Shown here in pieces: positions 1,944 to 28,797 of a stretch of 31,871 nucleotides of DNA; the first letter of the stretch is position 1; each line of letters opens with the position of its first letter. The stretch comes from a virus (Duplodnaviria; Heunggongvirae; Uroviricota; Caudoviricetes), in the IMG/VR virus record IMGVR_UViG_2548876962_000012, one strand, 5' to 3'. The position numbers and the translations under genes are program-made. The notes below the pieces were generated by a model. The model searched no databases and had not been told where the DNA came from. It worked only from the letters and a program-made list of their open reading frames with translations.

Positions 1944-1957
1944 TTTTCGTCACCTCC

Positions 1958-4405
1958 TTAACCGTCATGCATCATGCTGGCACGGGCGCGCGCACGTTTA
2001 TCCCGCTCGTATTTTTCGAGCGCATCCTGTAACTGGCGGTCAAGCTGTGTCCCCGGCGCAGTACCGCCCGTCAGGTTGATGTGATATTCGTTTTTACTCT
2101 GGTCCACATAAGAGCGACCAGCCGGTGCCGTGACCGGCTGATAAGCCTGATAGCCTGCATAAGAGCTGGTCGCCGGAATATAACCGCCGGTGCCATACGT
2201 GGCGACATGAGTCCTTGCGGCGGTCTGGTCAAGTGTGTCTGACTCTTTGTTGATAACACCGAGTTTTTCCAGTACCCAGTCAATACCGCTGCGCAGTTTG
2301 TTGAACGCATTAAGCGGCAGCATCAGCGCGTCAGCCAGTGCCTGCCCGAACATGACGCCCGTGTCACGGCAACGGTTCAGGGTGTCCTGGGTGGCTTTAA
2401 CCGGGGCAATCAGGTTTTTAAACCACTGCCACGCGGCCTGTAACTTTTCACCCAGCCAGTCAAACAGCGGCTTAAGTGGCGTGAACAGTTCCCCCACCGG
2501 CGCAAATGCCGCTTTCAGCCCTTCAACCACACCGCCAAAGAATGCGCTGACAGGCTCCCAGTATTTACGGATAAGTAACGCCCCGGCGACAATAGCGGCC
2601 ACCACAGCCACAACCGGCCAGCTAATCGCCCCGATGGCGGTCATAACAGCACTGCCAACCGTCGTGAAGATTGCCCCCATTGCGCCTGCTGCCGCGATGA
2701 TGGCATTGATGCCGGTGATAACCGGCCAGGCTACGAGGCCAATGGCACCAATGATGCCAGTCAGCGCCAGTGCACCACCGGCAATAATGCCGATGGTTGA
2801 CGCCAGTGATTTGTTTTTCTGGATCCAGCCGTCGAGTTTTAACACATACTTTGTGGCCGTCTGCGTGAGCTTACGCAGTGCGCCTTCCTGCTGGTCAAAC
2901 AGGTCAGTCCCCACCGCCTCATAAGCGGACTGAAACTCCTTAAAGTCACCGCCGAGGTTGTCCTGCATGATATTTACCAGCTCTGCGGTCTTTCCGTCAG
3001 AGGCTTTAAACGCAGCGGTCAGTTTGTCCAGCTTTCCGGTTGAGGCGGCAGTCATCAGCACGGCGGCGGCTGAACTGGCCTCCTCCCCGAAAATGGTTTT
3101 CATGTATTCAGCCTGCTGGGCAGTACCGAGCCGGTTTTTCTCAAAACTGGCCTGCATTTCTTTCAGAATGGTAAATATTGGCCGGGTGTTTCCCTTACTG
3201 TCTGAGGTTTTCACACCAAGCTCTTTCAGTGCATCCCATGCTTTTCCCGTCGGTGCCTGCAGGCGGCTTAACACGGCACGGCTTCCCGTCCCCGCCATTG
3301 AACCGGTAATTTTTGCATCATGCAGTGCACCGACCATTGCGGCGGTTTCTTCAATGCTGACACCGGCATTTTTTGCCACAGGTGCGGCATAGGTCAGCGC
3401 ATCGCTCATGCCGTCAAAATCGGCGGCGGTTTTGTTCATCGTCATGGAGAGAACATCCCCGATATGAGCGACTTTATCGTTTGAAAGCTGAAAGGCGGAT
3501 TTCATCCCCATCAGCAGGGCGGCGTTTTCTTCCATCGTGCGGCGGTTCGCCAGCGCCATGTTCAGCGTGACCGGCGTTGCCGCCTGAATGGCATCAACAT
3601 CCCCACCGGCTTTCGCAATGATAATCTGTGCACCGGCCGCATCATCCGCCGAGGCGGCGGTATTGTCGCCGAGCTGGCGCGCCTGTTTGCGTAGTGCGGC
3701 CATTTCGGTGGAGTCTTTTGCCACTCCGAGCACAGCCTGTAATTCTGAGTTTTTCTGCGCAAACTCATAACCGGGCATCAGCAGCTTAACTCCGGCCATC
3801 GTTCCCGCCGCCGCAATCCCCACACCGGCAGCGCCCACTGAGGCCATATTTCCGGCCAGTTCCTTGCCTGCCTGATAACGCTGTTTGACTGCGTTAAGTT
3901 TTGCCTGTTGCGCACTGACACGCGCCAGCGCGTCGCGCTGACGGTTAAGTTGTGCGGTGGTTTCACTGATACGGTTTTTCAGTCCCTGCTCATCATGTGC
4001 AAGATTGCGGGTATTAATTCCCACTGCGGCCAGTTCCCGCTGCTGGCGTTTAACGGAATCTGTCAGGCGGTTATATTTCGCCTGTAAGTCCTCCGCCGCA
4101 CGCTTTGCGGATTCCAGCACTTTCGCCTGAGCACGGGTCGGACGTTCAGTGTTTTTAAACTGTGTGGCAAGTGCTTCGGCTTCCTGCCGTGCCTTTTCAA
4201 GTGCATGACCAGTCACGGCAAGCTGTGCGCTGGTCTTGCGAAATCCCTCAATACGGGATGCGTGAGCATTCAGCTCGCGCAGTGATTTTTGTGTTTCCCG
4301 GATATCCCCCGACAGCGACTTACTCGCTGTGCGGATGGATTTAAACGGGCGGGATGCCTGGTCAACAGCCCTGAGCAATACCTGTAATTTTACATTGTTA
4401 CTCAT
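1958..4405 (-). CDS. T: Tail tape measure protein gpT, 815 aa
   Basis: 815-aa ORF with coiled-coil-rich N-terminal half and Gly/Ala-rich hydrophobic segments typical of tape measure proteins; position after E/E'. Confidence 0.9.
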   Translation of the reverse strand: MSNNVKLQVLLRAVDQASRPFKSIRTASKSLSGDIRETQKSLRELNAHASRIEGFRKTSAQLAVTGHALEKARQEAEALATQFKNTERPTRAQAKVLESAKRAAEDLQAKYNRLTDSVKRQQRELAAVGINTRNLAHDEQGLKNRISETTAQLNRQRDALARVSAQQAKLNAVKQRYQAGKELAGNMASVGAAGVGIAAAGTMAGVKLLMPGYEFAQKNSELQAVLGVAKDSTEMAALRKQARQLGDNTAASADDAAGAQIIIAKAGGDVDAIQAATPVTLNMALANRRTMEENAALLMGMKSAFQLSNDKVAHIGDVLSMTMNKTAADFDGMSDALTYAAPVAKNAGVSIEETAAMVGALHDAKITGSMAGTGSRAVLSRLQAPTGKAWDALKELGVKTSDSKGNTRPIFTILKEMQASFEKNRLGTAQQAEYMKTIFGEEASSAAAVLMTAASTGKLDKLTAAFKASDGKTAELVNIMQDNLGGDFKEFQSAYEAVGTDLFDQQEGALRKLTQTATKYVLKLDGWIQKNKSLASTIGIIAGGALALTGIIGAIGLVAWPVITGINAIIAAAGAMGAIFTTVGSAVMTAIGAISWPVVAVVAAIVAGALLIRKYWEPVSAFFGGVVEGLKAAFAPVGELFTPLKPLFDWLGEKLQAAWQWFKNLIAPVKATQDTLNRCRDTGVMFGQALADALMLPLNAFNKLRSGIDWVLEKLGVINKESDTLDQTAARTHVATYGTGGYIPATSSYAGYQAYQPVTAPAGRSYVDQSKNEYHINLTGGTAPGTQLDRQLQDALEKYERDKRARARASMMHDG

Positions 4406-4825
4406 TCGTGTTTCCGCTTCGCTGGAGCGCCTTTTCGCGCCATGTGATGAGTTCGGTCAGGCTCATGGGATACAGTTCTGATGGCGGCCAGTGAAATATC
4501 ACTGCCACATCCGCCATCAGGTCATCTACCGACAGATTTTTCGGAAACGTCACTGCACCGAGTTCGGCGACAAAAAACCGACCACCTTACCGGCCAGTTC
4601 CACAAGGTCAGGCAGTTCCAGCGCGGCGACTTCCTGCTCGGTCAGCATCGGTGCCGTCATGCGCGGCAGCACCTTAATAAGTGCATCGACTTCGGAGTGT
4701 GCGACCGAAGCCAGACTGACACCGCGAAGCGTCCCGGCATTAGGTTTCATCAGCGTGACCTGTTTGATAACCTGCTCACCACGTTTGACCGGATTTTCCA
4801 GGGTAATCACATTTTCTTTGTTCAT
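4398..4825 (-). CDS. E+E': gpE+E' programmed -1 frameshift product, about 142 aa
   Basis: Minus-strand slippery heptamer T6G (plus-strand a-run 4572-4577 plus 4571) near the 3' end of E. The -1 frame continues FFVAELGAVTFPKNLSVDDL...RSGNTNE to a TAA at 4398-4400 that overlaps the T start codon. Confidence 0.75.
4550..4825 (-). CDS. E: Tail assembly chaperone gpE, 91 aa
   Basis: 91-aa ORF between FII and T, ending ...GFLSPNSVQ; the slippery site lies in its last codons. Confidence 0.85.
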   Translation of the reverse strand: MNKENVITLENPVKRGEQVIKQVTLMKPNAGTLRGVSLASVAHSEVDALIKVLPRMTAPMLTEQEVAALELPDLVELAGKVVGFLSPNSVQ

Positions 4826-4881
4826 GGTTTTCTCACATCTGAATCGGGGTTAACCGGTCAGTCAGGCTGACCGGATGAAAA

Positions 4882-5400
4882 TCACAGGCCAATATTGCGG
4901 CGGTGTTGCTCCAGCCGGTCGACGCCGTTCACCTTCTCAATCATGTTGATGGTGTCAATTTCGACCAGCTCCTTACCGTCCATCGTCAGCCGGAAATAGG
5001 TGCAGACCACGGAGATTTTCGACTCGGTGTCTTCTCCCTGTTTACCCTCTCCGGTGTCGATTTCTTTCTGACGTCCACGCATGACCACTTCGACGGCCAC
5101 CGTTTCGCCGGTATCGTCGCGCTGGTAAGAGCCAGCAAAACGAATCGGCACGGCATCCACACCGGTTGCGGCGTAAAGCTCCCAGATAACCGAATCCGGG
5201 AAGCCCCCGAGCGACCACTCCATTGACAGCGCATCGTCATCAAGGCCGAGGTCTACCGGTGCGCTGCCGTTCATCCCCGCACCGCGATAGTTTTCGAGCT
5301 TACGGGTCAGTTTTGGCAGCGTGACGGACTTTGCGACGCCCTGATAGCTGTAGCCGTTCAGAAAGACGTTCATTAACTTGAGTTTGCGCGGCATTGCCAT
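4882..5400 (-). CDS. FII: Tail tube protein gpFII, 172 aa
   Basis: 172-aa ORF directly downstream of the sheath gene; P2 FII length and position. Confidence 0.9.
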   Translation of the reverse strand: MAMPRKLKLMNVFLNGYSYQGVAKSVTLPKLTRKLENYRGAGMNGSAPVDLGLDDDALSMEWSLGGFPDSVIWELYAATGVDAVPIRFAGSYQRDDTGETVAVEVVMRGRQKEIDTGEGKQGEDTESKISVVCTYFRLTMDGKELVEIDTINMIEKVNGVDRLEQHRRNIGL

Positions 5401-5412
5401 CGGTCAGGCTCC

Positions 5413-6603
5413 TTAATTGCTGTTAACCAAGGTGACCAGACTTGCCAGGTATCTTGAAGTAATACGCTGGCGCAGGGTCAGGTTTTCGAGGGGAGGCACC
5501 GGGGTATAGTCGTAGTCGATATACAGTTTTCCGGCCTTGAGGGTTTCCGCATCGTTGGATTCTTCACTGAACCAGCATGTGCCATCCACGATATAACCGT
5601 TGCTTTTCAGTTCGCGGAATTTGGCATTGATGCCATCAATGATGTCGCGAATCAGCGTTGCGGTGATGGGCTTATCAATAGCCCACATGTGCGCCTCAGC
5701 CATCGTGTCAGCCAGTACCTGCGCGGTGCGTGTGTAGCTTTCAAAGAGGAACAGTGGGTCATCGGAGCAGGTACGGTTACCCCAGAAACGGAAACCGTCG
5801 CGGCGAACCAGCGTTGTGACGCCTGCCTCGTTCAGCAGGTCAGCATCAGTGCCAGACTTCTGCAAATCCCAGAATACAGATGCGCTGATGCCGGTAACAC
5901 CGTTTACCCCGACGTTGGACAGCGTTTTATGCCAGCCCTGCTCCTGGTCGATTTTAGCGCGCAGCCCCAGCGCACGGGCGGTGGCATACGCGGTAGCGGT
6001 GGTACTGGTAACCGTATCCCATGCGAGGAAATCTGGCCAGATGACCATCAGCTCACGCTGGCTGAAATTCTGGCGGTAGGCTTTCACCTCGGAAATGGTT
6101 TTACAGCCCCATGCGCTGATATACCCGAATGCATTCAGTTCCTGGCATACCGATGCCAGTGCGACGGCAACCTCTTTGGTGTCCAGCCCCGGCACACCGA
6201 GAATGCGCGGTTTAACGCCGGTAACCGACTCAGCCCCCATCAGGGCTTTCAGTCCGGTGTACTGACCGTTTTCGTCGGTGGTGCCGATGATATTGGAAAC
6301 GGTCTGCGCGAGCTTCGTTTCCTCGTCGTCGCCGGTGCCGTCTTCCACACGCACAACAACGGTGACCGGTTTTGACTGGTCAGCGATGGCCTGCAACGAT
6401 GCCGCCAGCGTGCCTTTTTTACCGGCCTTTGCAATTGCGCTCTGCACATTGGTAATCAGCACAGGTTTATTGAGGGGGAAGGTTTCCGCATCCGCATCGC
6501 TGGCCGTGCAGACCATGCCGACAATGGCGGTGGATACGGTGGAAATGACGCGGGTGCCGTCGTTAATCTCCAGCACCTGCACGCCATGATGATAGTCGCT
6601 CAT
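5413..6603 (-). CDS. FI: Contractile tail sheath protein gpFI, 396 aa
   Basis: 396-aa ORF; P2 FI length and position at the head of the FI-FII-E-T-U-D operon. Confidence 0.9.
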   Translation of the reverse strand: MSDYHHGVQVLEINDGTRVISTVSTAIVGMVCTASDADAETFPLNKPVLITNVQSAIAKAGKKGTLAASLQAIADQSKPVTVVVRVEDGTGDDEETKLAQTVSNIIGTTDENGQYTGLKALMGAESVTGVKPRILGVPGLDTKEVAVALASVCQELNAFGYISAWGCKTISEVKAYRQNFSQRELMVIWPDFLAWDTVTSTTATAYATARALGLRAKIDQEQGWHKTLSNVGVNGVTGISASVFWDLQKSGTDADLLNEAGVTTLVRRDGFRFWGNRTCSDDPLFLFESYTRTAQVLADTMAEAHMWAIDKPITATLIRDIIDGINAKFRELKSNGYIVDGTCWFSEESNDAETLKAGKLYIDYDYTPVPPLENLTLRQRITSRYLASLVTLVNSN

Positions 6604-6697
6604 CCGTTTAACTCCGTGGTTAATGGGTGCAACTATTTTCTGTTGGGCAGTGCATGAGACGCTATTTGACCTGGCTGGTCAGTGGATGAAACAACAG

Positions 6698-6726
6698 ATA
6701 AAGAAAAGGCGGGCAATTCACCCGCC
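6698..6726 (-). terminator. Rho-independent terminator downstream of the HExxH cargo gene
   Basis: Minus strand reads GGCGGG-TGAATTG-CCCGCC followed by TTTTCTT (stem arms at 6708-6713 and 6721-6726). Confidence 0.5.
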
Positions 6727-6931
6727 TGTCCTGATTTGTACTCACTCATTTTCCGACTGACAATTTACTTAGCCCAAAAGCTATCAAATCTGACAGTCTG
6801 CTTCAGACAAAGAGCGGTCATTAAATGATAGAAGATTTTATTTCATTTTTGTGCCAGAAGCTGCCGCTCAGTAACTCCCGCAATAAATGGTGCGAAGAAT
6901 GAGCGTCTGGCGACCGAATTTCATTACCTTG

Positions 6932-7900
6932 TTATATGCCATTTTCAAGATCTGCGATTAGGTCAAAGCATAGCGATTTATAATCCTTTACGATCTTCGG
7001 CCGAATGGTTATTGAATGATATTTCAGCAACGCAAGGGCGAATGAGGAAAAATACAGCCAGAACCAGTCATCTTCCGGTAAATTGACATCTTGCACAGTC
7101 GCCGACCAACGCCCGTAAATGGGAGGATGAGTCTCTGAACCCGCGAGACGGTTTCTTCCTGTTGCGAAAAGGATAAAGGCGAATGCTAGAGCGATCCCCA
7201 TCATACGCTTCATCCTAACCTTTTCCGGGGGATACCCACTGCTTGCGGCGTACTCATCGATCTTGGATATCATCATATCCTTAGCGAACTGATCACACAG
7301 ATATTCTTCGTCCTTCGGGTCTTCCGGTGCATTTCCTTCAACTGAGAAAATTACGTGCTTCAGTTCATGTAAAAATACATATGCCGTAGCCATGCACATA
7401 AGATCATATACTGCAGCGCTCTCTGAATCTGACGGCCTACCCTTCTCAGGCTCAGGAATAGCCACTGGCCATTCAAAGTCGTCTTCATGAAATGCAGTGC
7501 TCAGGTCTTTCACTGCATCAAGTATCGACTTGAAGGCTTCATCTTCTGCTGCCTGATCTGGAATCTTGTTGATTTTGTTTATGTCGAGAGTGGCACCGCA
7601 TGATTTGAACAATTCAATCAACGAACAATAACAATGTAACGCCTGCATTCCCGCATAACTGAAAAGCCATATTTGACGCATTGATCTGCTGGTGTACTGG
7701 ATTGCGGAGAATCCTCCAGCATCTAAGTTAAATCCTTCGCGGTCACCAATCAGTCGGAACTGGGCATCATAATCGTTAGCGATAGATTCAATCTCTGATG
7801 CTCTCTCAGGAACAACACCGTCAAAAAGTTTTCGAACATTGTCTGTCGTTTCCACTAGTCCTCCTATGGCATATAAAAGTGCGTTATACCGGCCCCGCAA
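6932..7900 (-). CDS. Cargo protein with HExxH motif, putative zinc metallopeptidase, 322 aa (Z/fun position)
   Basis: AT-rich ORF between G and FI; HELKH at residues 178-182 followed by acidic residues; one hydrophobic segment (GIALAFAFILFATG); TTG start at 7900 preceded by a strong SD (AAGGAAG, 6-nt spacer); own downstream terminator. Confidence 0.6.
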   Translation of the reverse strand: MRGRYNALLYAIGGLVETTDNVRKLFDGVVPERASEIESIANDYDAQFRLIGDREGFNLDAGGFSAIQYTSRSMRQIWLFSYAGMQALHCYCSLIELFKSCGATLDINKINKIPDQAAEDEAFKSILDAVKDLSTAFHEDDFEWPVAIPEPEKGRPSDSESAAVYDLMCMATAYVFLHELKHVIFSVEGNAPEDPKDEEYLCDQFAKDMMISKIDEYAASSGYPPEKVRMKRMMGIALAFAFILFATGRNRLAGSETHPPIYGRWSATVQDVNLPEDDWFWLYFSSFALALLKYHSITIRPKIVKDYKSLCFDLIADLENGI

Positions 7901-8611: not shown

Positions 8612-10861
8612 TTATACCTGCGCCACGTTATACCATGTCCCGTTAATGTATTTCTGCACCGGTCTGTAATATACGCCACCAATGTTATCGGCAGAGTTTG
8701 AGCCGGTATCCTGAACAATAATGCCGGTATATACGCAACCTGACGGAGCCTGATGCGTCCATGTAGTACCATTATTTGCTGGTTTATATGTAGATGCACC
8801 GCCCAGCCGCATGTCTCTCATATAACGTGAATCTGACTCAGTTTTGGTGTATGCACCAACATCTCCCGCTGAGGGTTTATGAGCAGTTGTATATAGTTGC
8901 GCCCATCCAGACCAGTTAGCATCTGTGGTATCTCGTCGGGAGCGAATATATGCCGGAGCATGAGCACCGCTGGTTCCACTCCAGCCAATAAGTAACTCAC
9001 CCTCTCCTACTGCGGTTACGCCAGTGAGATGAAGCACATTACCATAGGCTGTTGGGTAGCCATTGTTGTATGCCTCATACATCTGAACACCTGGTGTCCC
9101 CTTTACGCTCCCACCTAATGCAGTAACACGGTTTCTGGATACCAGTGTATTAATATTTATATCGGCAGAGCCATCAAATCTGACACCATTAATATTTCTT
9201 GCGTTCGCTAACTTCGTTGCTGTTGCAGCATTTCCTGAAAGGCTGGAAATAAATGGATGTGAACAGTAATAACCACGTCCATTTTTAAAATCCAGAATAG
9301 CCTGTGCGTTCGTGCTTTCTGTAGCGGGATTAGTTGCCCCCCACTTATATGTCGTCTGACCGACGACATAATCCTCTGTCGGAACAATAACCGTTAGCCC
9401 TTCCTCTGCAAGAATTTGTACAGGGAAAGCTCTGGCTTCAACATAAAAAACACTACATACATCATCATCTTTCAGGCTTGTAACAATGGAATGAATTGAA
9501 CGCTCATTAGTCTGATACGTCCAGAAATAACCTGCCGCATATGAACCACGATCAGTCCAGCCTCCGGGCATAACCATGCCATTAAACTCGCAGTTATTCA
9601 TTACATAATCGCTGTTATAACAACCAGTGGAAATAACGACGCGGGATGCCATTTCTCCTGAAAGGCTGGCAGCACGGCGAAAGATAACGGGATACCACTT
9701 CCCGGCAACGACATTTGCAGGGGCTGCAAACGAATACTTTCGCATTCCCTTTTTCTTATCCACTTCACCTTTGCTGTAAACATTAATGTTACTCAGGAAG
9801 CGTCCTTTATCAGGAATATCCGCACCGTTCTGATCTTTCTGAAGACGTTTTTCAGCATTGTCATAGGCAGACTTCACCGCTTTTGGTGTTGCGGCCAGCG
9901 TTTCAGAATCACTGTTGGTGGCGCTACTGAGCTGGACAAGCCCTTTTCGCGCCGTGGTGGCATCCTGTGCAGTGTATTTCCCGTTAGCAAGGTCATACGC
10001 GGCCTTTACCGCCTTTGGCGTTGCCGCAAGCATTTCAGAATCGCTGTTGGTGACGCTACTGAGCTGGACAAGACCTTTTCGCGCTGTGGTGGCGTCCTGT
10101 GCAGTGTATTTCCCGTTAGCAAGGTCATATGCTGCCTTTACCGCTTTCGGCGTTGCGGCGAGCGTTTCAGACGTGCTGTTAGTCGCACTACTGAGCTGAA
10201 CAAGGCCTTTTCGCGCGGTGGTAGCGTCCTGTGCGGTATATTTCCCGTTAGCAAGGTCATATGCGGCCTTAACCGCTTTCGGCGTTGCAGCCAGTGTTTC
10301 AGACGTGCTGTTGGTCGCACTGCTTAACTGAGTAAAACCTTTTGCGGTCAGCGAGGCGTCAGGGTGACGTCGTGACTGTTCATGTTCTGCAATTTTGTCA
10401 TCAACGTAATCCTGCGTTGCCATCACCGTTGTGGTGTCAATGGTCAGCTCCACTGAGGCCACACTGCTGACGATGATGACCATGCGGCAGGTCTGCGAAC
10501 GCCCTGAGCCTTCGGCAAGAGCTGGCTTATAACTTTCGGCCATGTTCGCCACGGCAATTAACGTTCCAGCATCATCGTACAGGCCAAGCTCACGCATCCA
10601 GAAACCGCCCACCTCCGGCGGAATAACCAGCTCTGCGATAATATAATTACTGTTTCGTTTGTCCTGGCTGATTTTGTTCAGCGCATGTCGCCAGACTTCG
10701 TGGATAAGCCCGGTCTGTCCGGCATCCGGGACAGGCAATTTACCACCGCCATCCCCGACGGCCATCGTGGTAATGTTGACCTTCCGCCCTCCCGGTGCGG
10801 TTGCCGCTGCCAGCTTTGCTGCACCGGCAGTGGTGATAACGGTTTTGAATTTTGTGCTCAT
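8612..10861 (-). CDS. H: Tail fibre protein gpH, 749 aa
   Basis: N-terminus MSTKFKTVITTAGAAKLAAA typical of P2-family H; four tandem 44-aa tail-fibre repeats; a variable C-terminal region. Confidence 0.9.
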   Translation of the reverse strand: MSTKFKTVITTAGAAKLAAATAPGGRKVNITTMAVGDGGGKLPVPDAGQTGLIHEVWRHALNKISQDKRNSNYIIAELVIPPEVGGFWMRELGLYDDAGTLIAVANMAESYKPALAEGSGRSQTCRMVIIVSSVASVELTIDTTTVMATQDYVDDKIAEHEQSRRHPDASLTAKGFTQLSSATNSTSETLAATPKAVKAAYDLANGKYTAQDATTARKGLVQLSSATNSTSETLAATPKAVKAAYDLANGKYTAQDATTARKGLVQLSSVTNSDSEMLAATPKAVKAAYDLANGKYTAQDATTARKGLVQLSSATNSDSETLAATPKAVKSAYDNAEKRLQKDQNGADIPDKGRFLSNINVYSKGEVDKKKGMRKYSFAAPANVVAGKWYPVIFRRAASLSGEMASRVVISTGCYNSDYVMNNCEFNGMVMPGGWTDRGSYAAGYFWTYQTNERSIHSIVTSLKDDDVCSVFYVEARAFPVQILAEEGLTVIVPTEDYVVGQTTYKWGATNPATESTNAQAILDFKNGRGYYCSHPFISSLSGNAATATKLANARNINGVRFDGSADININTLVSRNRVTALGGSVKGTPGVQMYEAYNNGYPTAYGNVLHLTGVTAVGEGELLIGWSGTSGAHAPAYIRSRRDTTDANWSGWAQLYTTAHKPSAGDVGAYTKTESDSRYMRDMRLGGASTYKPANNGTTWTHQAPSGCVYTGIIVQDTGSNSADNIGGVYYRPVQKYINGTWYNVAQV
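9850..10375. repeat. Four tandem 132-bp in-frame repeats inside gene H
   Basis: Period exactly 132 bp (landmark tttcaga at 9900, 10032, 10164, 10296); encoded 44-aa unit KGLVQLSSATNS(T/D)SETLAATPKAVKAAYDLANGKYTAQDATTAR. Confidence 0.85.
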
Positions 10862-20429: not shown

Positions 20430-20602
20430 TGTCAGGAGTCCTGAATAGTGATTAGAGGAGTCACATGTCGGCATCAGTTTCCCGACGATACGCATCCTTC
20501 GCCATCAGTCCCGGATGGCTTATCACTGACACAACAGCACCTTAGCGAATCGCGGGGCGCGACTCAGTAGCCTTGCCGTGTATTCATCACGGCGAGGTAT
20601 TC

Positions 20603-22375
20603 ATGACCATCACCACAGACACCACTCTTTTACACGACCCGCGTCGTCAGGCGGCGCTGCTGTACTGGCAGGGGTTTTCCGTGCCGCAGATTGCCGCCAT
20701 GTTGCAGATGAAACGCCCGACGGTGCAGAGCTGGAAACAGCGCGACGGCTGGGACAGCGTTGCCCCCATCAGCCGTGTCGAAATGAGCCTGGAAGCGCGG
20801 CTGACCCAGCTCATCATCAAACCGCAGAAAACCGGCGGTGACTTCAAGGAAATTGACCTGCTGGGACGCCAGATTGAACGACTGGCACGGGTCAACCGTT
20901 ACAGCCAGACCGGCAACGAGGCAGACCTTAATCCGAACATCGCTAACCGCAACAAAGGCGGGCGTCGCAAACCGAAAAAGAATTTTTTCAGTGACGAGGC
21001 CATCGAAAAGCTGGAGCAGATTTTCTTTGAGCAGTCTTTCGAATATCAGTTGCACTGGTATCGCGCCGGGCTTGAGCACCGCATCCGCGATATCCTGAAA
21101 TCCCGCCAGATTGGCGCGACGTTTTATTTTTCCCGCGAGGCGCTGCTGCGCGCCCTGAAAACCGGTCATAACCAGATTTTTCTGTCGGCCAGTAAAACGC
21201 AGGCGTATGTGTTCCGCGAATACATCATCGCCTTTGCCCGGCTGGTTGACGTTGACCTGACCGGTGACCCGATTGTCCTGGGCAATAACGGCGCAAAACT
21301 GATTTTTCTCGGCACCAACTCCAACACCGCACAGAGCCATAACGGCGACCTGTACGTCGATGAGATTTTCTGGATCCCGAATTTTCAGGTACTGCGTAAG
21401 GTGGCATCAGGTATGGCCTCACAGAGTCACCTGCGCTCGACCTATTTCTCCACCCCGTCCACGCTGGCGCACGACGCCTACCCGTTCTGGTCGGGTGAAC
21501 TGTTCAACCGGGGTCGCGCCAGCGCCGCCGAACGCGTGGAAATCGACGTCAGTCATAACGCCCTTGCCGGAGGTCTTCTCTGTGCGGACGGCCAGTGGCG
21601 GCAGATTGTCACCATTGAGGACGCGCTGAAAGGCGGCTGCACGCTGTTCGACATTGAGCAGCTCAAACGTGAAAACAGCGCCGACGATTTTAAAAACCTG
21701 TTCATGTGTGAATTTGTTGACGACAAAGCGTCGGTGTTCCCGTTCGAGGAGCTGCAACGCTGCATGGTCGACACGCTGGAAGAATGGGAAGACTATGCGC
21801 CGTTTGCCGCGAATCCGTTCGGCTCCCGCCCGGTATGGATTGGTTACGACCCGTCACACCGTGGCGACAGTGCCGGATGCGTGGTGCTGGCACCGCCGGT
21901 GGTGGCCGGTGGCAAATTCAGAATACTTGAGCGTCACCAGTGGAAAGGCATGGACTTTGCCACTCAGGCTGAATCCATCCGCAAACTCACCGAAAAATAC
22001 AACGTCGAATACATCGGTATTGATGCCACCGGCCTCGGTGTCGGCGTGTTCCAGCTCGTGCGCTCGTTCTATCCCGCCGCGCGCGACATCCGCTACACGC
22101 CGGAAATGAAAACCGCAATGGTGCTCAAGGCAAAAGACGTCATCCGCCGTGGCTGTCTGGAATATGACGTCAGCGCCACCGACATCACCAGCTCGTTTAT
22201 GGCTATCCGCAAGACCATGACCAGCAGCGGACGCAGCGCCACCTATGAGGCCAGCCGCAGCGAGGAAGCCAGCCACGCCGACCTCGCCTGGGCGACCATG
22301 CACGCCCTGTTAAATGAGCCACTCACCGCCGGTATCAGCACTCCGCTGACATCCACCATTCTGGAGTTTTACTGA
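20603..22375 (+). CDS. P: Terminase large subunit gpP, 590 aa
   Basis: ATG at 20603 with SD GAGGT; 590 aa as in P2 P; stop overlaps the Q start (TGATG). Confidence 0.9.
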   Translation: MTITTDTTLLHDPRRQAALLYWQGFSVPQIAAMLQMKRPTVQSWKQRDGWDSVAPISRVEMSLEARLTQLIIKPQKTGGDFKEIDLLGRQIERLARVNRYSQTGNEADLNPNIANRNKGGRRKPKKNFFSDEAIEKLEQIFFEQSFEYQLHWYRAGLEHRIRDILKSRQIGATFYFSREALLRALKTGHNQIFLSASKTQAYVFREYIIAFARLVDVDLTGDPIVLGNNGAKLIFLGTNSNTAQSHNGDLYVDEIFWIPNFQVLRKVASGMASQSHLRSTYFSTPSTLAHDAYPFWSGELFNRGRASAAERVEIDVSHNALAGGLLCADGQWRQIVTIEDALKGGCTLFDIEQLKRENSADDFKNLFMCEFVDDKASVFPFEELQRCMVDTLEEWEDYAPFAANPFGSRPVWIGYDPSHRGDSAGCVVLAPPVVAGGKFRILERHQWKGMDFATQAESIRKLTEKYNVEYIGIDATGLGVGVFQLVRSFYPAARDIRYTPEMKTAMVLKAKDVIRRGCLEYDVSATDITSSFMAIRKTMTSSGRSATYEASRSEEASHADLAWATMHALLNEPLTAGISTPLTSTILEFY

Positions 22376-23409
22376 TGAGCAAGAAAAAAGGGAAAACACC
22401 GCAACCTGCGGCAAAAACAATGACCGCCAGCGCCCCGAAAATGGAGGCATTCACCTTTGGTGAGCCGGTGTCGGTACTCGACCGCCGTGACATTCTGGAT
22501 TACGTCGAGTGCATCAGTAACGGCAGATGGTATGAGCCACCGGTCAGCTTTACCGGTCTGGCAAAAAGCCTGCGTGCTGCCGTGCATCACAGCTCACCGA
22601 TTTACGTCAAACGCAATATTCTGGCCTCGACATTTATCCCGCATCCGTGGCTTTCCCAGCAGGATTTCAGCCGCTTTGTGCTGGATTTTCTGGTGTTCGG
22701 TAATGCGTTTCTGGAAAAGCGTTACAGCACCACCGGTAAGGTCATCAGACTGGAAACCTCACCGGCAAAATATACCCGCCGTGGCGTGGAGGAGGATGTT
22801 TACTGGTGGGTGCCGTCCTTCAACGAGCCGACAGCCTTCGCGCCCGGCTCCGTGTTTCACCTGCTGGAGCCGGATATCAATCAGGAGCTGTACGGCCTGC
22901 CGGAATATCTCAGCGCCCTTAACTCTGCCTGGCTGAATGAATCAGCCACGCTGTTCCGCCGCAAGTATTACGAAAACGGCGCACATGCCGGATACATCAT
23001 GTACGTCACCGATGCCGTGCAGGATCGCAACGATATCGAAATGCTCCGCGAAAACATGGTGAAGTCGAAAGGCCGCAACAACTTTAAAAACCTGTTTCTC
23101 TATGCCCCACAGGGGAAAGCCGACGGCATTAAAATTATCCCGCTCAGTGAAGTGGCAACGAAGGACGATTTTTTTAATATCAAAAAAGCCAGCGCCGCTG
23201 ACCTGCTGGACGCGCACCGCATCCCCTTTCAGTTGATGGGCGGCAAGCCGGAGAACGTCGGGTCGCTGGGCGATATTGAGAAAGTGGCAAAGGTCTTTGT
23301 CCGCAATGAGCTTATCCCGCTACAGGACAGGATCCGCGAGATAAACGGCTGGCTCGGCCAGGAAGTCATCCGCTTTAAAAACTACTCACTGGACACTGAC
23401 AACAGCTGA
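22375..23409 (+). CDS. Q: Portal protein gpQ, 344 aa
   Basis: 344-aa ORF adjacent to cos; P2 Q length and position. Confidence 0.9.
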   Translation: MSKKKGKTPQPAAKTMTASAPKMEAFTFGEPVSVLDRRDILDYVECISNGRWYEPPVSFTGLAKSLRAAVHHSSPIYVKRNILASTFIPHPWLSQQDFSRFVLDFLVFGNAFLEKRYSTTGKVIRLETSPAKYTRRGVEEDVYWWVPSFNEPTAFAPGSVFHLLEPDINQELYGLPEYLSALNSAWLNESATLFRRKYYENGAHAGYIMYVTDAVQDRNDIEMLRENMVKSKGRNNFKNLFLYAPQGKADGIKIIPLSEVATKDDFFNIKKASAADLLDAHRIPFQLMGGKPENVGSLGDIEKVAKVFVRNELIPLQDRIREINGWLGQEVIRFKNYSLDTDNS

Positions 23410-23579: not shown

Positions 23580-23598
23580 GTGCTTTCCCCGCCTCGCC
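23580..23598. other. cos: cos cohesive-end site (19 nt)
   Basis: gtgctttccccgcctcgcc is the reverse complement of GGCGAGGCGGGGAAAGCAC, the P2 cohesive-end sequence as I recall it; located next to Q as in P2. Confidence 0.7.
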
Positions 23599-23801
23599 TG
23601 CGCGCTTCATGGGGCGATTTTGATGCAGGTGCATGAGCTCTCTCAGACTGAACAAAAGCTAGCAACGCCCAAACAATCACGATGTCCAAAACGCATGCAT
23701 TTTCATGCAAGGAAGAGGATTATGTCGATACGTTAAAAAACTACCAAAGTAAATTATAAGCATACACTAACAACTCAAAAAAATGCCCTCCTCACAAATC
23801 A

Positions 23802-24254
23802 TTATGCTTCCTCTGTATTCATAAGTCTTAAAAGAATTTCTCCAGTGCTAGCATCAGACATTAGATCATTTAACGCTTTGATTAACGTTTCTTTATCTTT
23901 GCACCTAACATCCCGTTTGTTATAAGAAATCACACATGGATAACCATCTGATTCATTTATCTTCCAAACAGCAATGTTCTCTTTAACTTCTGTTTGCTCT
24001 CTCTTAGTTACGAACGATAGAGCTTCGTAATCGATGTAAGGGTTGATGTTTGTAATCGAACTCACAACGGCAGTAAGCGCTGTCTGATTAGGTGCGAGTT
24101 TTTTTTCACTCGTAACTTTCAAAAACACTCGCCCTTGACTAAGCTCCTTTACACTGTCACTTAAGTCACTGATAACACTAAAAATTTCTTCTTTATTTGA
24201 TCTTGCTTTTTTGGCTGCCTCTAACCCCACAGCTAATGAATTTTTGAAATCCAT
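23802..24254 (-). CDS. Cargo protein of unknown function, 150 aa, downstream partner of the EEP gene
   Basis: AT-rich ORF; ATG 4 nt after the EEP gene stop with a GAGAGG SD-like element; no TM segments or recognisable motifs. Confidence 0.6.
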   Translation of the reverse strand: MDFKNSLAVGLEAAKKARSNKEEIFSVISDLSDSVKELSQGRVFLKVTSEKKLAPNQTALTAVVSSITNINPYIDYEALSFVTKREQTEVKENIAVWKINESDGYPCVISYNKRDVRCKDKETLIKALNDLMSDASTGEILLRLMNTEEA

Positions 24255-24258
24255 TTTT

Positions 24259-25161
24259 TTAACCTCTCGTAATTACAGCGATAACAGGTAAATGATCAAA
24301 GTTAGTTTTTGGACTTGTCACCAAATTTTTAAAGACTTCATCGTTAATGATTTTAACCTCATCCTCCAAAAGATTCCAATCTCCACCAGAAATGAATGAA
24401 GAGGAGAAAATAATTTGATCAAATGTATGCCAACGGGTTACAGCACCGCCACTGTAATAATATGTCCCGTAAGTACTCAAATGATGATCTTCTGATGGAA
24501 AACTAATTGAAGCCCCCATAAAATTCCAAAAAGGGTTGTATAAAAAAATATCTTTTTTGACAACCAAGTCTCTATCCCTTGTTGCCCCTAAAGCATGTGT
24601 AATAGATTTATTAAAGGGATCGTCATTGTAATCACCTAAAAGAATAAAATACTTTCCTGACTTTTCCTCTATACATCTACTGATCGCTCCTCGCAAAGCT
24701 TTTCCTAATTCATATCGTTTTGGCATTTCTTCATTAGAATCATTACCTCTCATAGGCCAATGCGATATGTAGAAAAAAAAATGATCCCCACTATTATTAT
24801 GCATGAGCTGAACTTCTTGCCCGGCTCTTACCGCTCCTAACAATGACTGTTCAACAATACTTTTACTATCAATGTAAGTGAAAGTAGCTAGCTTTATAAG
24901 AATGCACATATCATGTTTTATGCTTCCTTCAGTGAAAGTCCCATCATATATTATGAACCCTTTCTCTGAGAAAATCTCCTCTAAAACCTTAATATCTGAT
25001 GGTGATATTTCTCCAAGACATAGAATATCAACATTATGACTCATCAAAATATTTGTTATAAGAGCAAATGCTACATCCAACTCTTCAGGAGTAGAACGAT
25101 CTCTTTTAACCGCAGGAGATATCCCCGTATTCCACCAAGCGATTGAAACAGCCTCACACAT
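24259..25161 (-). CDS. Cargo EEP-fold (endonuclease/exonuclease/phosphatase family) protein, 300 aa
   Basis: Very AT-rich ORF; ordered EEP signature motifs: WWNTG near the N-terminus, DILCLGE (the LCLQE-type motif), LLGDYNDD (GDxN), and FDHLPV (SDHxPV-type) at the C-terminus. Confidence 0.7.
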   Translation of the reverse strand: MCEAVSIAWWNTGISPAVKRDRSTPEELDVAFALITNILMSHNVDILCLGEISPSDIKVLEEIFSEKGFIIYDGTFTEGSIKHDMCILIKLATFTYIDSKSIVEQSLLGAVRAGQEVQLMHNNSGDHFFFYISHWPMRGNDSNEEMPKRYELGKALRGAISRCIEEKSGKYFILLGDYNDDPFNKSITHALGATRDRDLVVKKDIFLYNPFWNFMGASISFPSEDHHLSTYGTYYYSGGAVTRWHTFDQIIFSSSFISGGDWNLLEDEVKIINDEVFKNLVTSPKTNFDHLPVIAVITRG

Positions 25162-25185
25162 TCATTCATACCCAATTATTATCTA

Positions 25186-25207
25186 GATGATATTACTGAT
25201 GATATTA
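25186..25207. promoter_or_regulatory. Perfect 10-bp direct repeat (gatgatatta x2, 2-bp spacer) in the promoter region of the cargo operon
   Basis: Copies at 25186-25195 and 25198-25207, 25 bp upstream of the EEP gene start, in the A / cargo intergenic region. Confidence 0.4.
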
Positions 25208-25278
25208 TTTCCGAAATCAAATAAACACAACTCTTATCTTGACATGATTTGCTGTTTAATATTTAGAAATAAAACCGG

Positions 25279-27552
25279 TTACTTCTCAGAAAACCCTGGC
25301 CATCCCTTATCGGTCGCATAAATGAACTTTTTGTTACCGTAAAGCACCGCTGCCCCACGAGCCAGCGCGTCGAGCTCCCATCGCTGCGGCCTGATACCGC
25401 TCTGAGCAAGGTCAACGCGGATACGGGTAATTTGCATTCGTTCCGACCGGGTCAGTCTGGCCGATGGTGCCATTTCATGCTGTTTTAACGGGCTTCCGTT
25501 TCTTTGCTGACGGTTTGGCGTTCTCCGGTCGTGTTTTAATGCACCCCTGAGCGCCCTCACGACCTCCGGTTCATTCCATTCAATAACACCGTCATCAACC
25601 AGATTAAGCACAGCTGCGGCGTGCTCAGAAGGTGTGGGAGCCGGTAACGAAGTATCACCACCTGTGAGCTTTCCACAGTTATTGACAGGACTCCGAGGCG
25701 CGGCGATGCCGCTTTTTAAAGTCAAAGGCTCAACGACCGGAACTTTCGGCACAATGCGCCAGTCCGTCGTTCTGGTGATATGAATATGACGCGCGCCGAG
25801 ATGCGGCGCGTAAATGCCGACCACTCTCTCGACTTCTTCCTCGTACTCGTTAACGTCATCCGACGGGCTACGGGCGACCCTGACAGTCTGACGATCGCGC
25901 GGGACATTTGCCCCACCCTGCGCGCTGATATACAACGCAAAATCACCACTGTCTGCGGCGGCGCGTGCAGCCTCGACGCGCTCGTCAAACTCATCAGCAA
26001 TGCTGACGCCGCGCGGCAATTTGCGTAGTTCACGGTAAGCCCCCATTGTCGGCAGACCAACCGTTTTAAATTGCGGGATGCGCCACGTTGACGCCCATGC
26101 AGTAACAGCCGCGGCAGTATCTTTCAGAGGTCTGCCGGTATCGTTATCGAGCTGACCATCCAGTGCATAGCCGTCGATGTTTTTTGAGATGTATTTCGCG
26201 ATATACCCCGCAGCACCGCCCCGATTAAGGTGTTTTGCCTGAAAACGGTTTCGCGCGGCTCCTCTTTCGTCGCCATCCTCTTTGAGCGCATAGCGACGCA
26301 TGATTTCGATAATCTGGTTACGCTGGCGCGGATTACAAAAAAGCATCATATGCCAGTGCGGCGTTCCGTCGTGGTGTGGCTCGACGACACGCAAACCGTA
26401 GACCTGTAAATCATTATCCTTGAATGCCGTGCGCATCAGGCTCCAGATACGGCAGAGATAACGCTGCGCATCCTTTGGATTAAATGCCTCATCGTTCCAG
26501 CCGTGATTTAGCTGGACGGTTTTACTTTCGCCTTTTCTGACCTGACGTGTCGGATGATACTTTGACGGCGCGGTCAGCGTGATAAACATCCCCACATCAC
26601 CCTCTGCTGCGGCGTAACGCTCAATACCGGCGATGGTGTTCATCAGCTCCATCCGGCGAATTTCAGGATTAGAAATACTGCCCATCACCTTACTGATAAG
26701 GTCGATGCGCTCGCCGGTTTCCCTGTTTTCGAGGTCACACGATTTAAGAAATTCCAGATTTGCCTGGCGGCGTGCACGCACATCACGAATGGCATGTTTA
26801 CTGGCATAAGGAGAACGGTCTTTATTGACCTCCCCGACAGCTATCAGTAACGCTTCATGCCAGCGCATACGCTGACCTTTAAGCTGATGAGTCCACCACT
26901 CATCGTTAAACAGGCGGGCAATGGCAGAATATGCCTGCCTCGTGGTCATCTGTCTTTTACGGTATTTTTTCCAGTAGAGAGGGGAAATATTGAAAGCTCG
27001 TGCAGCGCCAGCAACATGACCATACAGGTGAGCCTGAGCCTCATCCGTAAACAGTGATTCTTTTTCGCCATGCGCATCCACCCAGGCATCGCTGAGTTCC
27101 TCATACATCATGAAAAGCTGCGATGAGATACGGGCGGCAAACTTTTTCAGCTCCTTGTCATTCATTCCCGGCAGGCGCGCATAGTGGTCACGCTCTGCCA
27201 GAAACAGCAACGACGCGTCGGTGTTCATTTCATGGCGCTGATTCACACGCTCAATGCGCGGCCATAAACGACGCTGAAAAGTGGATGTGAGGAAATAAAA
27301 CCCGTGCACCGGGCTTTTATTGCGCCGGATGTAGTCATAGCGTGAAGTAAACAGCGAGCGCAAAAAGTAAGGCAGGCGATTAATCGTGGATAAAACACCT
27401 TGCACCTGACGCATCTCGTCACGTGTAAGGGGTCTTTCGCGCCCGACGGCCTCGCGTGGCGCGTTCCAAGCATAAGCACCGGTAAACGTCTCACCGGTGC
27501 CTGCGGCAAATGCTGACGGAGGGACAAAACGCCCGGAGGCTTTAACGGCCAT
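25279..27552 (-). CDS. A: Replication initiation protein gpA (rolling-circle initiator), about 757 aa
   Basis: Large ORF at the P2 A position with paired catalytic-tyrosine-like motif (YIAKYISKN); start assigned to the ATG at 27550-27552 (MAVKASG) because the longer track ORF begins at a TTG at 27594. Confidence 0.85.
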   Translation of the reverse strand: MAVKASGRFVPPSAFAAGTGETFTGAYAWNAPREAVGRERPLTRDEMRQVQGVLSTINRLPYFLRSLFTSRYDYIRRNKSPVHGFYFLTSTFQRRLWPRIERVNQRHEMNTDASLLFLAERDHYARLPGMNDKELKKFAARISSQLFMMYEELSDAWVDAHGEKESLFTDEAQAHLYGHVAGAARAFNISPLYWKKYRKRQMTTRQAYSAIARLFNDEWWTHQLKGQRMRWHEALLIAVGEVNKDRSPYASKHAIRDVRARRQANLEFLKSCDLENRETGERIDLISKVMGSISNPEIRRMELMNTIAGIERYAAAEGDVGMFITLTAPSKYHPTRQVRKGESKTVQLNHGWNDEAFNPKDAQRYLCRIWSLMRTAFKDNDLQVYGLRVVEPHHDGTPHWHMMLFCNPRQRNQIIEIMRRYALKEDGDERGAARNRFQAKHLNRGGAAGYIAKYISKNIDGYALDGQLDNDTGRPLKDTAAAVTAWASTWRIPQFKTVGLPTMGAYRELRKLPRGVSIADEFDERVEAARAAADSGDFALYISAQGGANVPRDRQTVRVARSPSDDVNEYEEEVERVVGIYAPHLGARHIHITRTTDWRIVPKVPVVEPLTLKSGIAAPRSPVNNCGKLTGGDTSLPAPTPSEHAAAVLNLVDDGVIEWNEPEVVRALRGALKHDRRTPNRQQRNGSPLKQHEMAPSARLTRSERMQITRIRVDLAQSGIRPQRWELDALARGAAVLYGNKKFIYATDKGWPGFSEK

Positions 27553-27817
27553 ATGAGCCAAAAGCCTCTGAACAACGCTTGCTGAGTTGCTCAACCTGCG
27601 CGTTTAAATCAGCAAAAGACTTTGCGCTTCCGGTCAGAATATCGTGATGCATCAGGCCGGAAACGAGCTGGCTTAATTTCGGGTAATAACCAACCACCGC
27701 CAGCCATTCCTGACCGGCGTTTTTACCGCTTTCCGCTCTCTTTTTCTCGTGGAGAATAAACTGGAAGCTGTCACTGGTAACGACATAACGTTCGCCAATT
27801 TCAATACGAATACTCAT
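27542..27817 (-). CDS. Early-operon small protein, 91 aa, hypothetical
   Basis: ORF overlapping the A start by 11 nt and the upstream gene stop (ATGA); position of a P2 early-operon small ORF. Confidence 0.6.
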   Translation of the reverse strand: MSIRIEIGERYVVTSDSFQFILHEKKRAESGKNAGQEWLAVVGYYPKLSQLVSGLMHHDILTGSAKSFADLNAQVEQLSKRCSEAFGSYGR

Positions 27818-28038
27818 GCCGTTCTCCGGTAATGTTTGTTTTTTGCTTCAAAGACTGACTGACAGGAAACACAACGCGTGGCTGACGGATAAGCCGCACG
27901 ACGGGCAGCAGGTATTGGCGCGTCACACTCTTCGCAAACCAGCGCAGAAACACCGCAATGTTTTACCCTTGCCGCGTTAATCTGGCGCTCCAGTAATTCA
28001 GCCTGTTGTTCCTGAATAAAATCTACGTTGTCCGGCAT
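27814..28038 (-). CDS. TraR/DksA-type C4 zinc-finger protein, 74 aa
   Basis: CEEC ... CVSC four-cysteine motif with the spacing typical of the TraR/DksA family; early-operon position. Confidence 0.65.
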   Translation of the reverse strand: MPDNVDFIQEQQAELLERQINAARVKHCGVSALVCEECDAPIPAARRAAYPSATRCVSCQSVFEAKNKHYRRTA

Positions 28039-28328
28039 TACCAGTTCCTTTTGTCGTTCAGCTTCTTAAATTCATCAGCGCAATAGCTGGCGATTTCTGT
28101 CGTTAATTTTGTTAGTTCATCCACGGATGAAATTTGCTTATGAAATACAGCGCGTTTAACAAGTAAATTGACCACATCAGACAAGAGATTTAATTTATCC
28201 GCATAAATGGCTATAGTTGATTCCACCATATCCCCAGTGTTTTTATCGCGTTTAATATCAGCTAGCGACAAATCACCATTTTTCATGACTGAAATCTTCA
28301 GCCAGTTATTAAGCAATATATTTTTCAT
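28038..28328 (-). CDS. AT-rich early-operon hypothetical protein, 96 aa
   Basis: ORF with markedly lower GC than its neighbours; stop and start overlap the flanking genes. Confidence 0.55.
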   Translation of the reverse strand: MKNILLNNWLKISVMKNGDLSLADIKRDKNTGDMVESTIAIYADKLNLLSDVVNLLVKRAVFHKQISSVDELTKLTTEIASYCADEFKKLNDKRNW

Positions 28329-28570
28329 TCGCTATATGCCCTCTCCGCAGAATCAATCATTTCCCGGCCATTATCGGTAATACAGAAACCTTCTCTTGAT
28401 TTGGTCACAAGCCCCCATTTTCCCATTGCTATAAATGCTTTTTCCACACGACTAGGACAGGAGCGGAAGACATCGCTTGAAGGATGTAGTGGAGTCTTGT
28501 CATCTAATTTTTTAAGTAATGAAAGTTGATAATCTGTTAAGCGTTTCCTGAACCATTTTGTATTTGTCAT
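28325..28570 (-). CDS. Early-operon hypothetical protein, 81 aa
   Basis: Start taken at the ATG at 28568-28570 (MTNTKWF), preceded by an AGGGAAG SD-like element; the track ORF begins at a TTG two codons upstream. Confidence 0.55.
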   Translation of the reverse strand: MTNTKWFRKRLTDYQLSLLKKLDDKTPLHPSSDVFRSCPSRVEKAFIAMGKWGLVTKSREGFCITDNGREMIDSAERAYSE

Positions 28571-28584
28571 CTCCAACTTCCCTG

Positions 28585-28797
28585 TTATTTATTGAGTCCT
28601 AGATTATGGAATTTGGCAGACTCCTGACTGAGCAACTCGACTATCTCCACGCGGGATAACTCCGCCTTTGTGATGTGGCGAATCATGGCATCAAGATGAG
28701 ACGAAAAGCGCGTTGCTGCATCGACCTGTGCTTCGGTTCTGGCCTGTTGCAGCATTAATGCGTATTTACCGCACTGATTTTCAGAAACTGTATGCAT
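28585..28797 (-). CDS. Early-operon hypothetical protein, 70 aa
   Basis: ORF immediately downstream of B; ATG start. Confidence 0.55.

Follow-up and report, generated by a model that had tools for sequence, protein, structure and literature searches.

Results

Two AT-rich genes between gene A and cos

We analysed a 31,871-nucleotide (nt) stretch of Caudoviricetes DNA (IMG/VR record IMGVR_UViG_2548876962_000012; the whole stretch is called the window here). A reading made from its letters alone, the sequence-only reading, had singled out two genes in the slot that carries old and tin in phage P2 as a possible undescribed anti-phage system. One was said to encode a 300-residue enzyme of the endonuclease/exonuclease/phosphatase (EEP) fold and the other, starting 4 nt after its stop, a 150-residue partner. 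Both open reading frames (ORFs) are present on the minus strand, each with an ATG start, and the spacing is as described, with the TAA of the enzyme gene ending at 24259 and the ATG of the partner gene beginning at 24254. The locus comprises the following features, numbered as in the window.

24259-25161, minus strand: gene for the 300-residue EEP-fold enzyme, the predicted effector (ORF with ATG start, Pfam match and AlphaFold2 model)
23802-24254, minus strand: gene for the 150-residue partner (ORF with ATG start, without a Pfam family)
24255-24267, minus strand: enzyme/partner junction, with AGAGG at 24263-24267, TAA at 24259-24261 and then 4 nt to the partner ATG
25162-25278, minus strand: AT-rich 117-nt spacer from the gpA stop to the enzyme start, a candidate promoter region (sequence and upstream alignment)
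23599-23801, minus strand: tail of the AT-rich insert, from the partner stop to cos (composition and sequence)
23580-23598, minus strand: P2-type cos, 19 nt (GGCGAGGCGGGGAAAGCAC), one edge of the variable slot, with the same sequence as cosR of P2 (AF063097)
25279-27594, minus strand: gene for the gpA replication endonuclease, the conserved flank across the slot, 97% identical in DNA to P2 gene A
22375-23409, plus strand: portal gene, beyond cos
20573-22375, plus strand: terminase gene, beyond the portal gene

The GC content over the pair is 0.35-0.36 against 0.52-0.59 in both flanks, so that the cassette stands out as an AT-rich insert between gene A and cos. The 19-nt cos sequence occurs once in the window, where 0 matches would be expected by chance, and the gpA homologue of a closely related Escherichia coli prophage (L001) is annotated as a replication endonuclease. 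The matching interval of P2 (AF063097) is occupied by orf91, tin and old, and the segment between gpA and cos has been described as a variable hotspot of P2-like phages (Rousset et al. 2022, PMC9122126). The pair consists of non-core genes that a P2-like phage carries between its gene A and cos/portal and thus has the position of hotspot cargo. Both the AT-richness and the old/tin position claimed for it are therefore borne out. Orientation differs, however: old and tin of P2 are transcribed from a promoter near cos toward gene A, whereas the pair in the window is co-oriented with gene A.

The junction carries an AGAGG box (24263-24267) that resembles a Shine-Dalgarno sequence and lies inside the 3' end of the enzyme gene, 8 nt ahead of the partner ATG. 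The two genes had been called co-translated; we retain that they are co-transcribed and probably translationally coupled, and give up the original wording. The 117-nt spacer contains a box, ATAATATC, that is conserved among the closest relatives (upstream alignment of the window with L140, L142 and L082), and we regard 25162-25278 as a candidate promoter region. This conserved AT-rich box is all that could be demonstrated upstream of the pair, and a defined sigma-70 promoter was dropped. A type III toxin-antitoxin arrangement, with its RNA antitoxin or repeat array, was rejected, since the locus has no Rfam match and no repeats.

The larger gene is predicted to encode an active EEP phosphoesterase

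All four EEP motifs named by the sequence-only reading are found in the enzyme translation (WWNTG at residues 9-13, DILCLGE at 45-51, LLGDYNDD at 173-180 and FDHLPV at 288-293). Pfam matches exceed the gathering scores both for PF19580 (E = 6.8e-16; 58.6 bits, gathering 27) and for PF03372 (E = 4.4e-8; 33.6 bits, gathering 24.5), and NCBIfam returned weak, sub-threshold exoIII matches. An AlphaFold2 (AF2) model built from 19 diverse homologues reached a predicted local distance difference test (pLDDT) score of 81 and a predicted template-modelling (pTM) score of 0.85, a conserved loop at residues 217-244 being the exception, and has the four-layer alpha/beta sandwich of the EEP fold. Foldseek found 201 matches to this model in the PDB at E <= 1e-3, and the best 50 listed were EEP enzymes throughout. 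The top matches, at probability 1.0, template-modelling (TM) scores of 0.60-0.65 and 13-16% identity, were 3mpr (an uncharacterised Bacteroides protein), Nocturnin, TDP2, CNOT6L and ANGEL2. By sequence, Nocturnin is the sole solved relative of the enzyme (E = 2.6e-4 in a PDB sequence search).

The complete EEP catalytic and metal-binding set (Asn, Glu, Asp-x-Asn, Asp and Asp-His) is present in the enzyme. E51, H134, D177, N179, D248, D289 and H290 are found in 53 of 53 diverse family members and N11 in 52 of the 53. W10, W135, Y208-N209-P210 and W212 are also conserved and are specific to the family, as is the loop at 217-244 (GTYYY...W), which the AF2 model leaves disordered. Because the catalytic set is conserved, the Pfam matches are significant and the model has the EEP fold, we predict that the 300-residue protein is an active metal-dependent phosphoesterase of a distinct EEP branch, in agreement with the original assignment. 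It shares its fold and the Asn, Glu, Asp-x-Asn, Asp, Asp-His set with the branch that holds TDP2, Nocturnin, CCR4-CNOT6L and ANGEL2. Identity to these enzymes is only 13-16%, however, the loop at 217-244 is peculiar to the window family, and the named enzymes have no obligate small partner. These apparently nearest folds (TDP2, Nocturnin, CCR4/CNOT6L and ANGEL2) process nucleic-acid ends or nucleotide phosphate esters. Direct reading of the N-termini, MCEAVSIAWW for the enzyme and MDFKNSLAVG for the partner, revealed no signal peptide in either protein.

Enzyme and partner form one unit

Family loci were fetched with the enzyme as seed, which yielded 20 chromosomal and 47 viral-contig loci of at least 99 bits each, separated by a clean gap from generic EEP proteins of Bacteroidota, which score no more than 60 bits. 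The resulting set of 68 loci takes in the window and its E. coli twin. At all 68 a same-strand ORF starts between -65 and +7 nt from the enzyme stop, mostly at -8, -4, 0 or +1, and at 67 of the 68 this ORF encodes a homologue of the partner (that of L100 was identified by a six-frame check). The sole family locus without a partner is that of Mitsuaria chitosanitabida (L016, enzyme at 5959-6954), where a 1298-residue ORF on the minus strand follows; it may be a decayed copy.

The linkage also holds in the reverse direction. The partner has no conserved stretch of 7-10 residues usable as a seed, and the reverse test was made instead through the contigs that encode partners of distant clades. Of five such representatives, four returned a locus (P0292 returned none), and each of these four (P0173, P0290, P0272 and P0244) has a PF19580 protein of 291-316 residues directly upstream. 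Enzyme and partner co-diverge, their pairwise identities being correlated over 53 loci with r = 0.84, a value reached by 0 of 2000 permutations in a Mantel test; the partner evolves faster, at a mean identity of 26% against 33% for the enzyme. Neither fused enzyme-partner proteins nor partner swapping were seen among the family loci. Altogether these data show that the pair is a self-sufficient two-protein module held together under strong selection and that it recurs as a conserved unit in other genomes, contrary to one of the outcomes that would have refuted the sequence-only reading.

The Hafnia P2-like prophages carry an extra ORF of 59 residues (L142:5357-5536 and L143:1465-1644) that shares 4 nt with the end of the partner gene. 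This ORF is absent from the window.

The partner belongs to a family without a name

The partner had been described as devoid of recognisable motifs, and indeed no family for it was found in Pfam (at threshold), NCBIfam or PADLOC; it matches two PHROGs, both of unknown function. The family is nonetheless large: a search through all 1.84 billion representatives of clusters at 50% identity gave 627 relatives at E <= 1e-3, and among the 150 relatives listed nearly all are stand-alone proteins of 137-196 residues. In the predicted fold, modelled from a 22-sequence enterobacterial alignment, a long helix at the N-terminus is followed by a sheet of five strands and a pair of C-terminal helices; the protein has a GYPC motif, and the structural matches of the model are generic alpha+beta sandwiches. 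Conservation centres on the N-terminal helix (G..AA..A..N..EI) and on the motif GYPC...C.DK..LE..L..LL.

Partners are mildly acidic, with a median isoelectric point (pI) of 5.3, and most lack a basic tail. A strongly acidic DNA-mimic partner was rejected, the median pI being just 5.3. In five integrase-adjacent prophage loci the partner bears a C-terminal tail of 150-290 residues made of AAKP/KPAA repeats:

L099, 6911-7975: AAKP-tailed partner
L103, 3736-4644: AAKP-tailed partner
L104, 2084-2968: AAKP-tailed partner
L107, 2585-3901: AAKP-tailed partner
L124, 2651-3538: AAKP-tailed partner

Tails of this type are known in AlgP, histone H1-like and PhaF proteins, where they bind DNA non-specifically, which hints by analogy that the partner may act on or near DNA. 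Tandem duplication as the origin of partners of 294-438 residues was rejected, as they consist of a single partner domain and an AAKP-repeat tail.

The pair travels on phages, plasmids and chromosomal islands

Clustering of neighbouring ORFs at 62 non-redundant loci showed that just the two genes are common to all contexts. P2-type terminase is found at 13 of the 62, gpA at 9 and portal at 9. The order gpA-pair-cos-portal is seen again in Enterobacter, Hafnia and Klebsiella prophages, whose enzymes are 92%, 77% and 54% identical, respectively, and in viral contigs down to about 35% identity, the closest ones always with 300 + 150 residues, and co-occurrence in the gpA-cos slot of other P2-like prophages, proposed as a check by the sequence-only reading, was thus found. 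Elsewhere the pair directly follows an integrase with a CI-type repressor a few kilobases (kb) off, comes after genes for tail fibres or spikes, follows a Dam methylase, or, in temperate Acinetobacter phages, adjoins the integrase. Among the Acinetobacter copies, that of PP359530 (43158-44487) has a split enzyme gene, whereas that of MD-2021a is intact. A filamentous, inovirus-like Vibrio cyclitrophicus prophage of 9.7 kb (L137, PQ189352) has the pair at 1774-3082, with 299 + 132 residues, in its accessory region next to a putative regulator and an IS629-like transposase; the collection to which it belongs was reported to have variable loci enriched in defence genes (PMC11630473).

On 3.5-kb non-mobilizable plasmids of the ColE1 type the pair is the only cargo (18 Klebsiella pneumoniae records, nearly all of about 3.5 kb). 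One of them, NZ_CP143506.1 (L147, 3541 bp), encodes proteins of 297 + 145 residues at 1262-2576 in genes that overlap by 17 nt; the GC content of the pair is 0.33 against 0.49 in the backbone, and the rest of the plasmid consists of Rop and the replication region. Related plasmids of 3.0-3.3 kb occur in E. coli and Edwardsiella, and in one of these, pEC904 (L148, 3066 bp), the partner is apparently frameshifted.

Several chromosomal copies have defence-related neighbours. DarT, DarG (Macro), the enzyme and the partner lie head to tail at 2272-5495 of CP053747.1 (L133), from a 6.9-Mb genome, and the partner sequence of this locus is present in 477 blocks of the collection index, which indicates that the arrangement is common in that species. 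At L008 the pair is directly downstream of a DinG/Csf4-type helicase, and at L010 it is two genes away from a DpdF-like helicase. A neighbour scan pooled across loci returned a CBASS cyclase, a 2TM effector and AriA-like ATPases. The pair is present across Proteobacteria and beyond, and the enzyme family also occurs in free-living methanotrophs, Geobacter and marine bacteria. We looked for a housekeeping EEP enzyme behind these matches and found instead a family carried on phages, plasmids and islands.

Partner-only copies in Acinetobacter phages

Searched against a viral structure library, the partner model had one significant match, AB2_37 of Acinetobacter phage IME-AB2 (Foldseek E = 1e-4, TMt 0.80). 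This is a shortened, stand-alone homologue of 115 residues (L139, JX976549, 18290-18637, minus strand), encoded among consecutive small hypothetical genes; the phage is assigned to Obolenskvirus. The partner profile matches AB2_37 at E = 5.7e-16, covering the N-terminal helix and the C-terminal half, and the window partner matches the PHROG of AB2_37 (phrog_10179). Relatives of AB2_37 are found in 58 records of Acinetobacter phages, nearly all between 42 and 46 kb long, and the enzyme in 0 of the 58. In the phage collection as a whole the enzyme is confined to temperate Acinetobacter phages and the filamentous prophage of Vibrio, apart from two faecal phage contigs, both unannotated, that match it in part. 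By sequence, AB2_37 appears to be an old, divergent member of the partner family. Its recent capture from Acinetobacter prophages was rejected, as it is not specially close to the partner found there.

No named system was found to match the pair

Neither window protein matched any model of PADLOC-DB v2.0.0 (dated 2023) at E <= 1, the models for OLD, Tin and PARIS and the PD-, HEC- and PDC- candidates included, and the divergent Pseudomonas and Vibrio members and AB2_37 had no match at E <= 0.01. No description of the pair was found in the literature searched. The peptide motifs of the pair are not found in the supplements of Rousset et al. 2022, and those of a 2026 preprint on P2/P4 hotspots, searched by domain-name keywords only, contain no EEP-domain match. 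The sole mention of EEP in a defence context that we found concerns helicases of the YprA family, some of which have an EEP domain that is inactivated (PMC12458937). The statement that the pair belongs to no named system thus stands within these sources.

Discussion

A proposed toxin-inhibitor-like model

Altogether, the conservation, linkage and carriage described above make the pair a credible candidate anti-phage system on sequence grounds. The simplest model, to which we give an even chance of being right, is that the pair is a mobile, self-contained defence module that works like a toxin and its inhibitor, in which the partner restrains the enzyme until infection; that the two proteins bind each other and that the partner inhibits the enzyme are elements that we infer, as are the trigger, the substrate and resistance to phages. 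We envision a scenario in which the enzyme is a cytoplasmic metal-dependent EEP phosphoesterase that serves as effector. The partner would be produced in step with it through translational coupling and would bind it and keep it inactive or gated. Infection would disturb this complex and free the enzyme, which would then destroy something that replication requires, be it a nucleic-acid end, an adduct or a nucleotide, so that the phage, and perhaps the cell too, is stopped. Because the nearest folds act on ends or phosphate esters, the likely target is the end of a nucleic acid, an adduct of protein and DNA or a nucleotide cofactor, more so than random duplex DNA. The shortened stand-alone partner of the Obolenskvirus-type Acinetobacter phages would, in such a scenario, keep the enzyme shut.

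By analogy, the pair would work like the cargo of the P2 hotspot and like enzymatic toxin-antitoxin or abortive-infection pairs, both of which it resembles. With old and tin it shares the slot between gene A and cos and the character of AT-rich, non-essential cargo, and Old is a nuclease that excludes another phage. The sequences are unrelated, however: Old belongs to the ATPase-TOPRIM proteins, Tin likewise shows no relation to the pair, and no PADLOC or Pfam match links them. The likeness to type II toxin-antitoxin and abortive-infection pairs such as DarTG and RnlAB lies in a tightly coupled two-gene unit found on prophages, plasmids and defence islands and in the combination of an enzyme with a faster-evolving small cognate protein. 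The genes are adjacent, co-oriented and inherited as a unit, as in those systems (4-nt gap, 67/68 loci, r = 0.84). Unlike in those systems, the enzyme gene comes first and the partner lacks an autoregulating DNA-binding domain, and in the sources searched no toxin of the EEP fold and no partner of this fold is described as a toxin-antitoxin family. A stand-alone small protein in other phages is a further likeness: T4 Dmd is a phage-encoded antitoxin that acts against RnlA.

Alternative explanations

The main rival, unlikely in our view, is that the pair is a two-subunit nuclease that attacks incoming DNA without suicide of the cell, the partner being its nucleic-acid-binding or targeting subunit. 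The AAKP/KPAA tails in five prophage loci are what such a subunit might be expected to have, DNases exist among EEP enzymes, and strict pairing and co-divergence would suit any obligate complex. The nearest folds, however, appear to be end-processing and nucleotide enzymes rather than DNase I or ExoIII, and most partners are mildly acidic and without a basic tail. No marker of self and non-self, such as a methyltransferase, is linked to the pair, and a free partner in other phages is harder to explain here, except as a dominant-negative decoy.

The toxin-inhibitor-like model also has a bolder version, which we consider rather unlikely, in which the enzyme would bring a chemistry new to bacterial immunity and the partner would be an inhibitor or sensor that phages counterfeit. 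TDP2-like activity would remove the 5'-phosphotyrosyl protein-DNA intermediates of rolling-circle or protein-primed invaders, or else Nocturnin-like activity would dephosphorylate NADP(H) or a nucleotide. The Obolenskvirus-type phages would escape with a counterfeit small inhibitor or sensor, itself a new protein family.

Quite unlikely as the whole account is plain addiction, that is, a post-segregational killing module that stabilises its prophage or plasmid and has no anti-phage role. The tightly coupled two-gene layout, the spread over many unrelated mobile elements and the small ColE1-type plasmids, non-mobilizable and with the pair as sole cargo, are as one would expect of such a module. 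Stability alone, however, would not account for a position in slots known as reservoirs of defence genes (PMC9122126), for chromosomal copies that adjoin DarTG, DinG-type and DpdF-like genes, or for partner-only copies in a separate group of Acinetobacter phages, which point to phage-host conflict. Addiction and defence are, moreover, not mutually exclusive.

It is improbable that the enzyme serves the phage itself, either by TDP2-like removal of the 5'-phosphotyrosyl adducts of gpA-type initiators or as a counter-defence that destroys immune signalling nucleotides or cofactors. The closest folds include TDP2 and Nocturnin, the pair directly follows gene A in P2-like phages and is co-oriented with it, and a filamentous phage that replicates by rolling circle has the pair too. 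Yet gpA is present in only 9 of the 62 contexts, and the ColE1 plasmids and chromosomal islands have the pair without such an initiator. Were the enzyme a counter-defence, other phages should carry it, but the partner is all that they carry.

A lysogenic-conversion toxin against eukaryotic cells, similar to CdtB, is effectively refuted: CdtB does have the EEP fold, and Rousset et al. 2022 (PMC9122126) include a cdt operon (CDtoxinA, CDtoxinA, Exo_endo_phos) in a supplementary table of what P2 hotspots contain, but CdtB is secreted and requires CdtA and CdtC, whereas neither window protein has an N-terminal signal peptide, no lectin subunits like CdtA/CdtC accompany the enzyme, the partner has no CDtoxinA match and the family occurs in free-living methanotrophs, Geobacter and marine bacteria.

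Several points weigh against the toxin-inhibitor-like defence model. Our search for defence models covered a database of 2023, and the pair may have been named since. Several of the PADLOC matches among neighbouring genes are to generic ATPase or helicase models, the viral-contig collection is skewed toward phages, and the pair is rare in E. coli, with 1 occurrence in 5426 complete genomes. The partner has no DNA-binding family of the helix-turn-helix, ribbon-helix-helix or AbrB kind in Pfam. A consensus scan found no strong sigma-70 site in 25162-25278, and 23599-23801 contains no clear intrinsic terminator; with no clear promoter or terminator of its own and the same direction as gene A, the pair has only a putative expression in the lysogen. 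As for the partner-only phages, we take the 58 to be virulent from their genus and size class. AB2_37 is a distant member of the family, no nearer to the partner of Acinetobacter prophages than to others, and a captured inhibitor or counter-defence gene is a possible lead, one reading of it among others.

Significance

What is new here is a candidate: a prophage-borne two-gene defence system whose effector fold and partner family are both new. The case for it goes beyond what a sequence-only reading could show, as the pair is widespread and strictly linked, consists of two unnamed families, is carried on mobile elements and in defence islands and has a possible phage counter-measure. Should it restrict phages, the catalogue of defence systems would gain a widespread member, whose partner family by itself amounts to 627 clusters at 50% identity. 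An active role of the EEP effector fold in bacterial immunity is not described in the sources searched, and the chemistry at the target could therefore be new. The system is also minimal, with two genes in 1.36 kb that are naturally carried on 3.5-kb plasmids, which makes it easy to test. If the counter-defence reading of AB2_37 is true, the partner-only gene of the 58 Acinetobacter baumannii phage records would be a ready-made counter-defence candidate of relevance to phage therapy against this species. More generally, the gpA-cos slot of P2 still contains cargo without a name.

Other features of the window and its E. coli twin

Besides the gpA-cos slot, the prophage has a variable slot at the Z/fun position, between the tail sheath gene FI and the tail-fibre assembly gene G, which is filled by a gene on the minus strand (6932-7900) with a GC content of about 0.44-0.47 against 0.58 in its flank. 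It encodes a 322-residue protein with the zinc-protease motif HELKH that matches Peptidase_U49 (3.8e-8) and the PADLOC model for Lit (1.8e-14), and on this sequence evidence is a predicted Lit-like abortive-infection protease. Its presence in the Z/fun slot fits a prophage whose cargo slots carry exclusion genes.

The E. coli twin, strain SC487 (L001, NZ_LR778149), the single complete genome of that species with the pair, has a cassette 99.4% identical to that of the window at 8905-10675. The neighbouring terminase gene is annotated as frameshifted, and the SC487 prophage may be defective while its cassette is intact. A second AT-rich stretch in the window, at 28000-28600 (GC content 0.38-0.39), belongs to the early region, upstream of the small ORFs of gene A.

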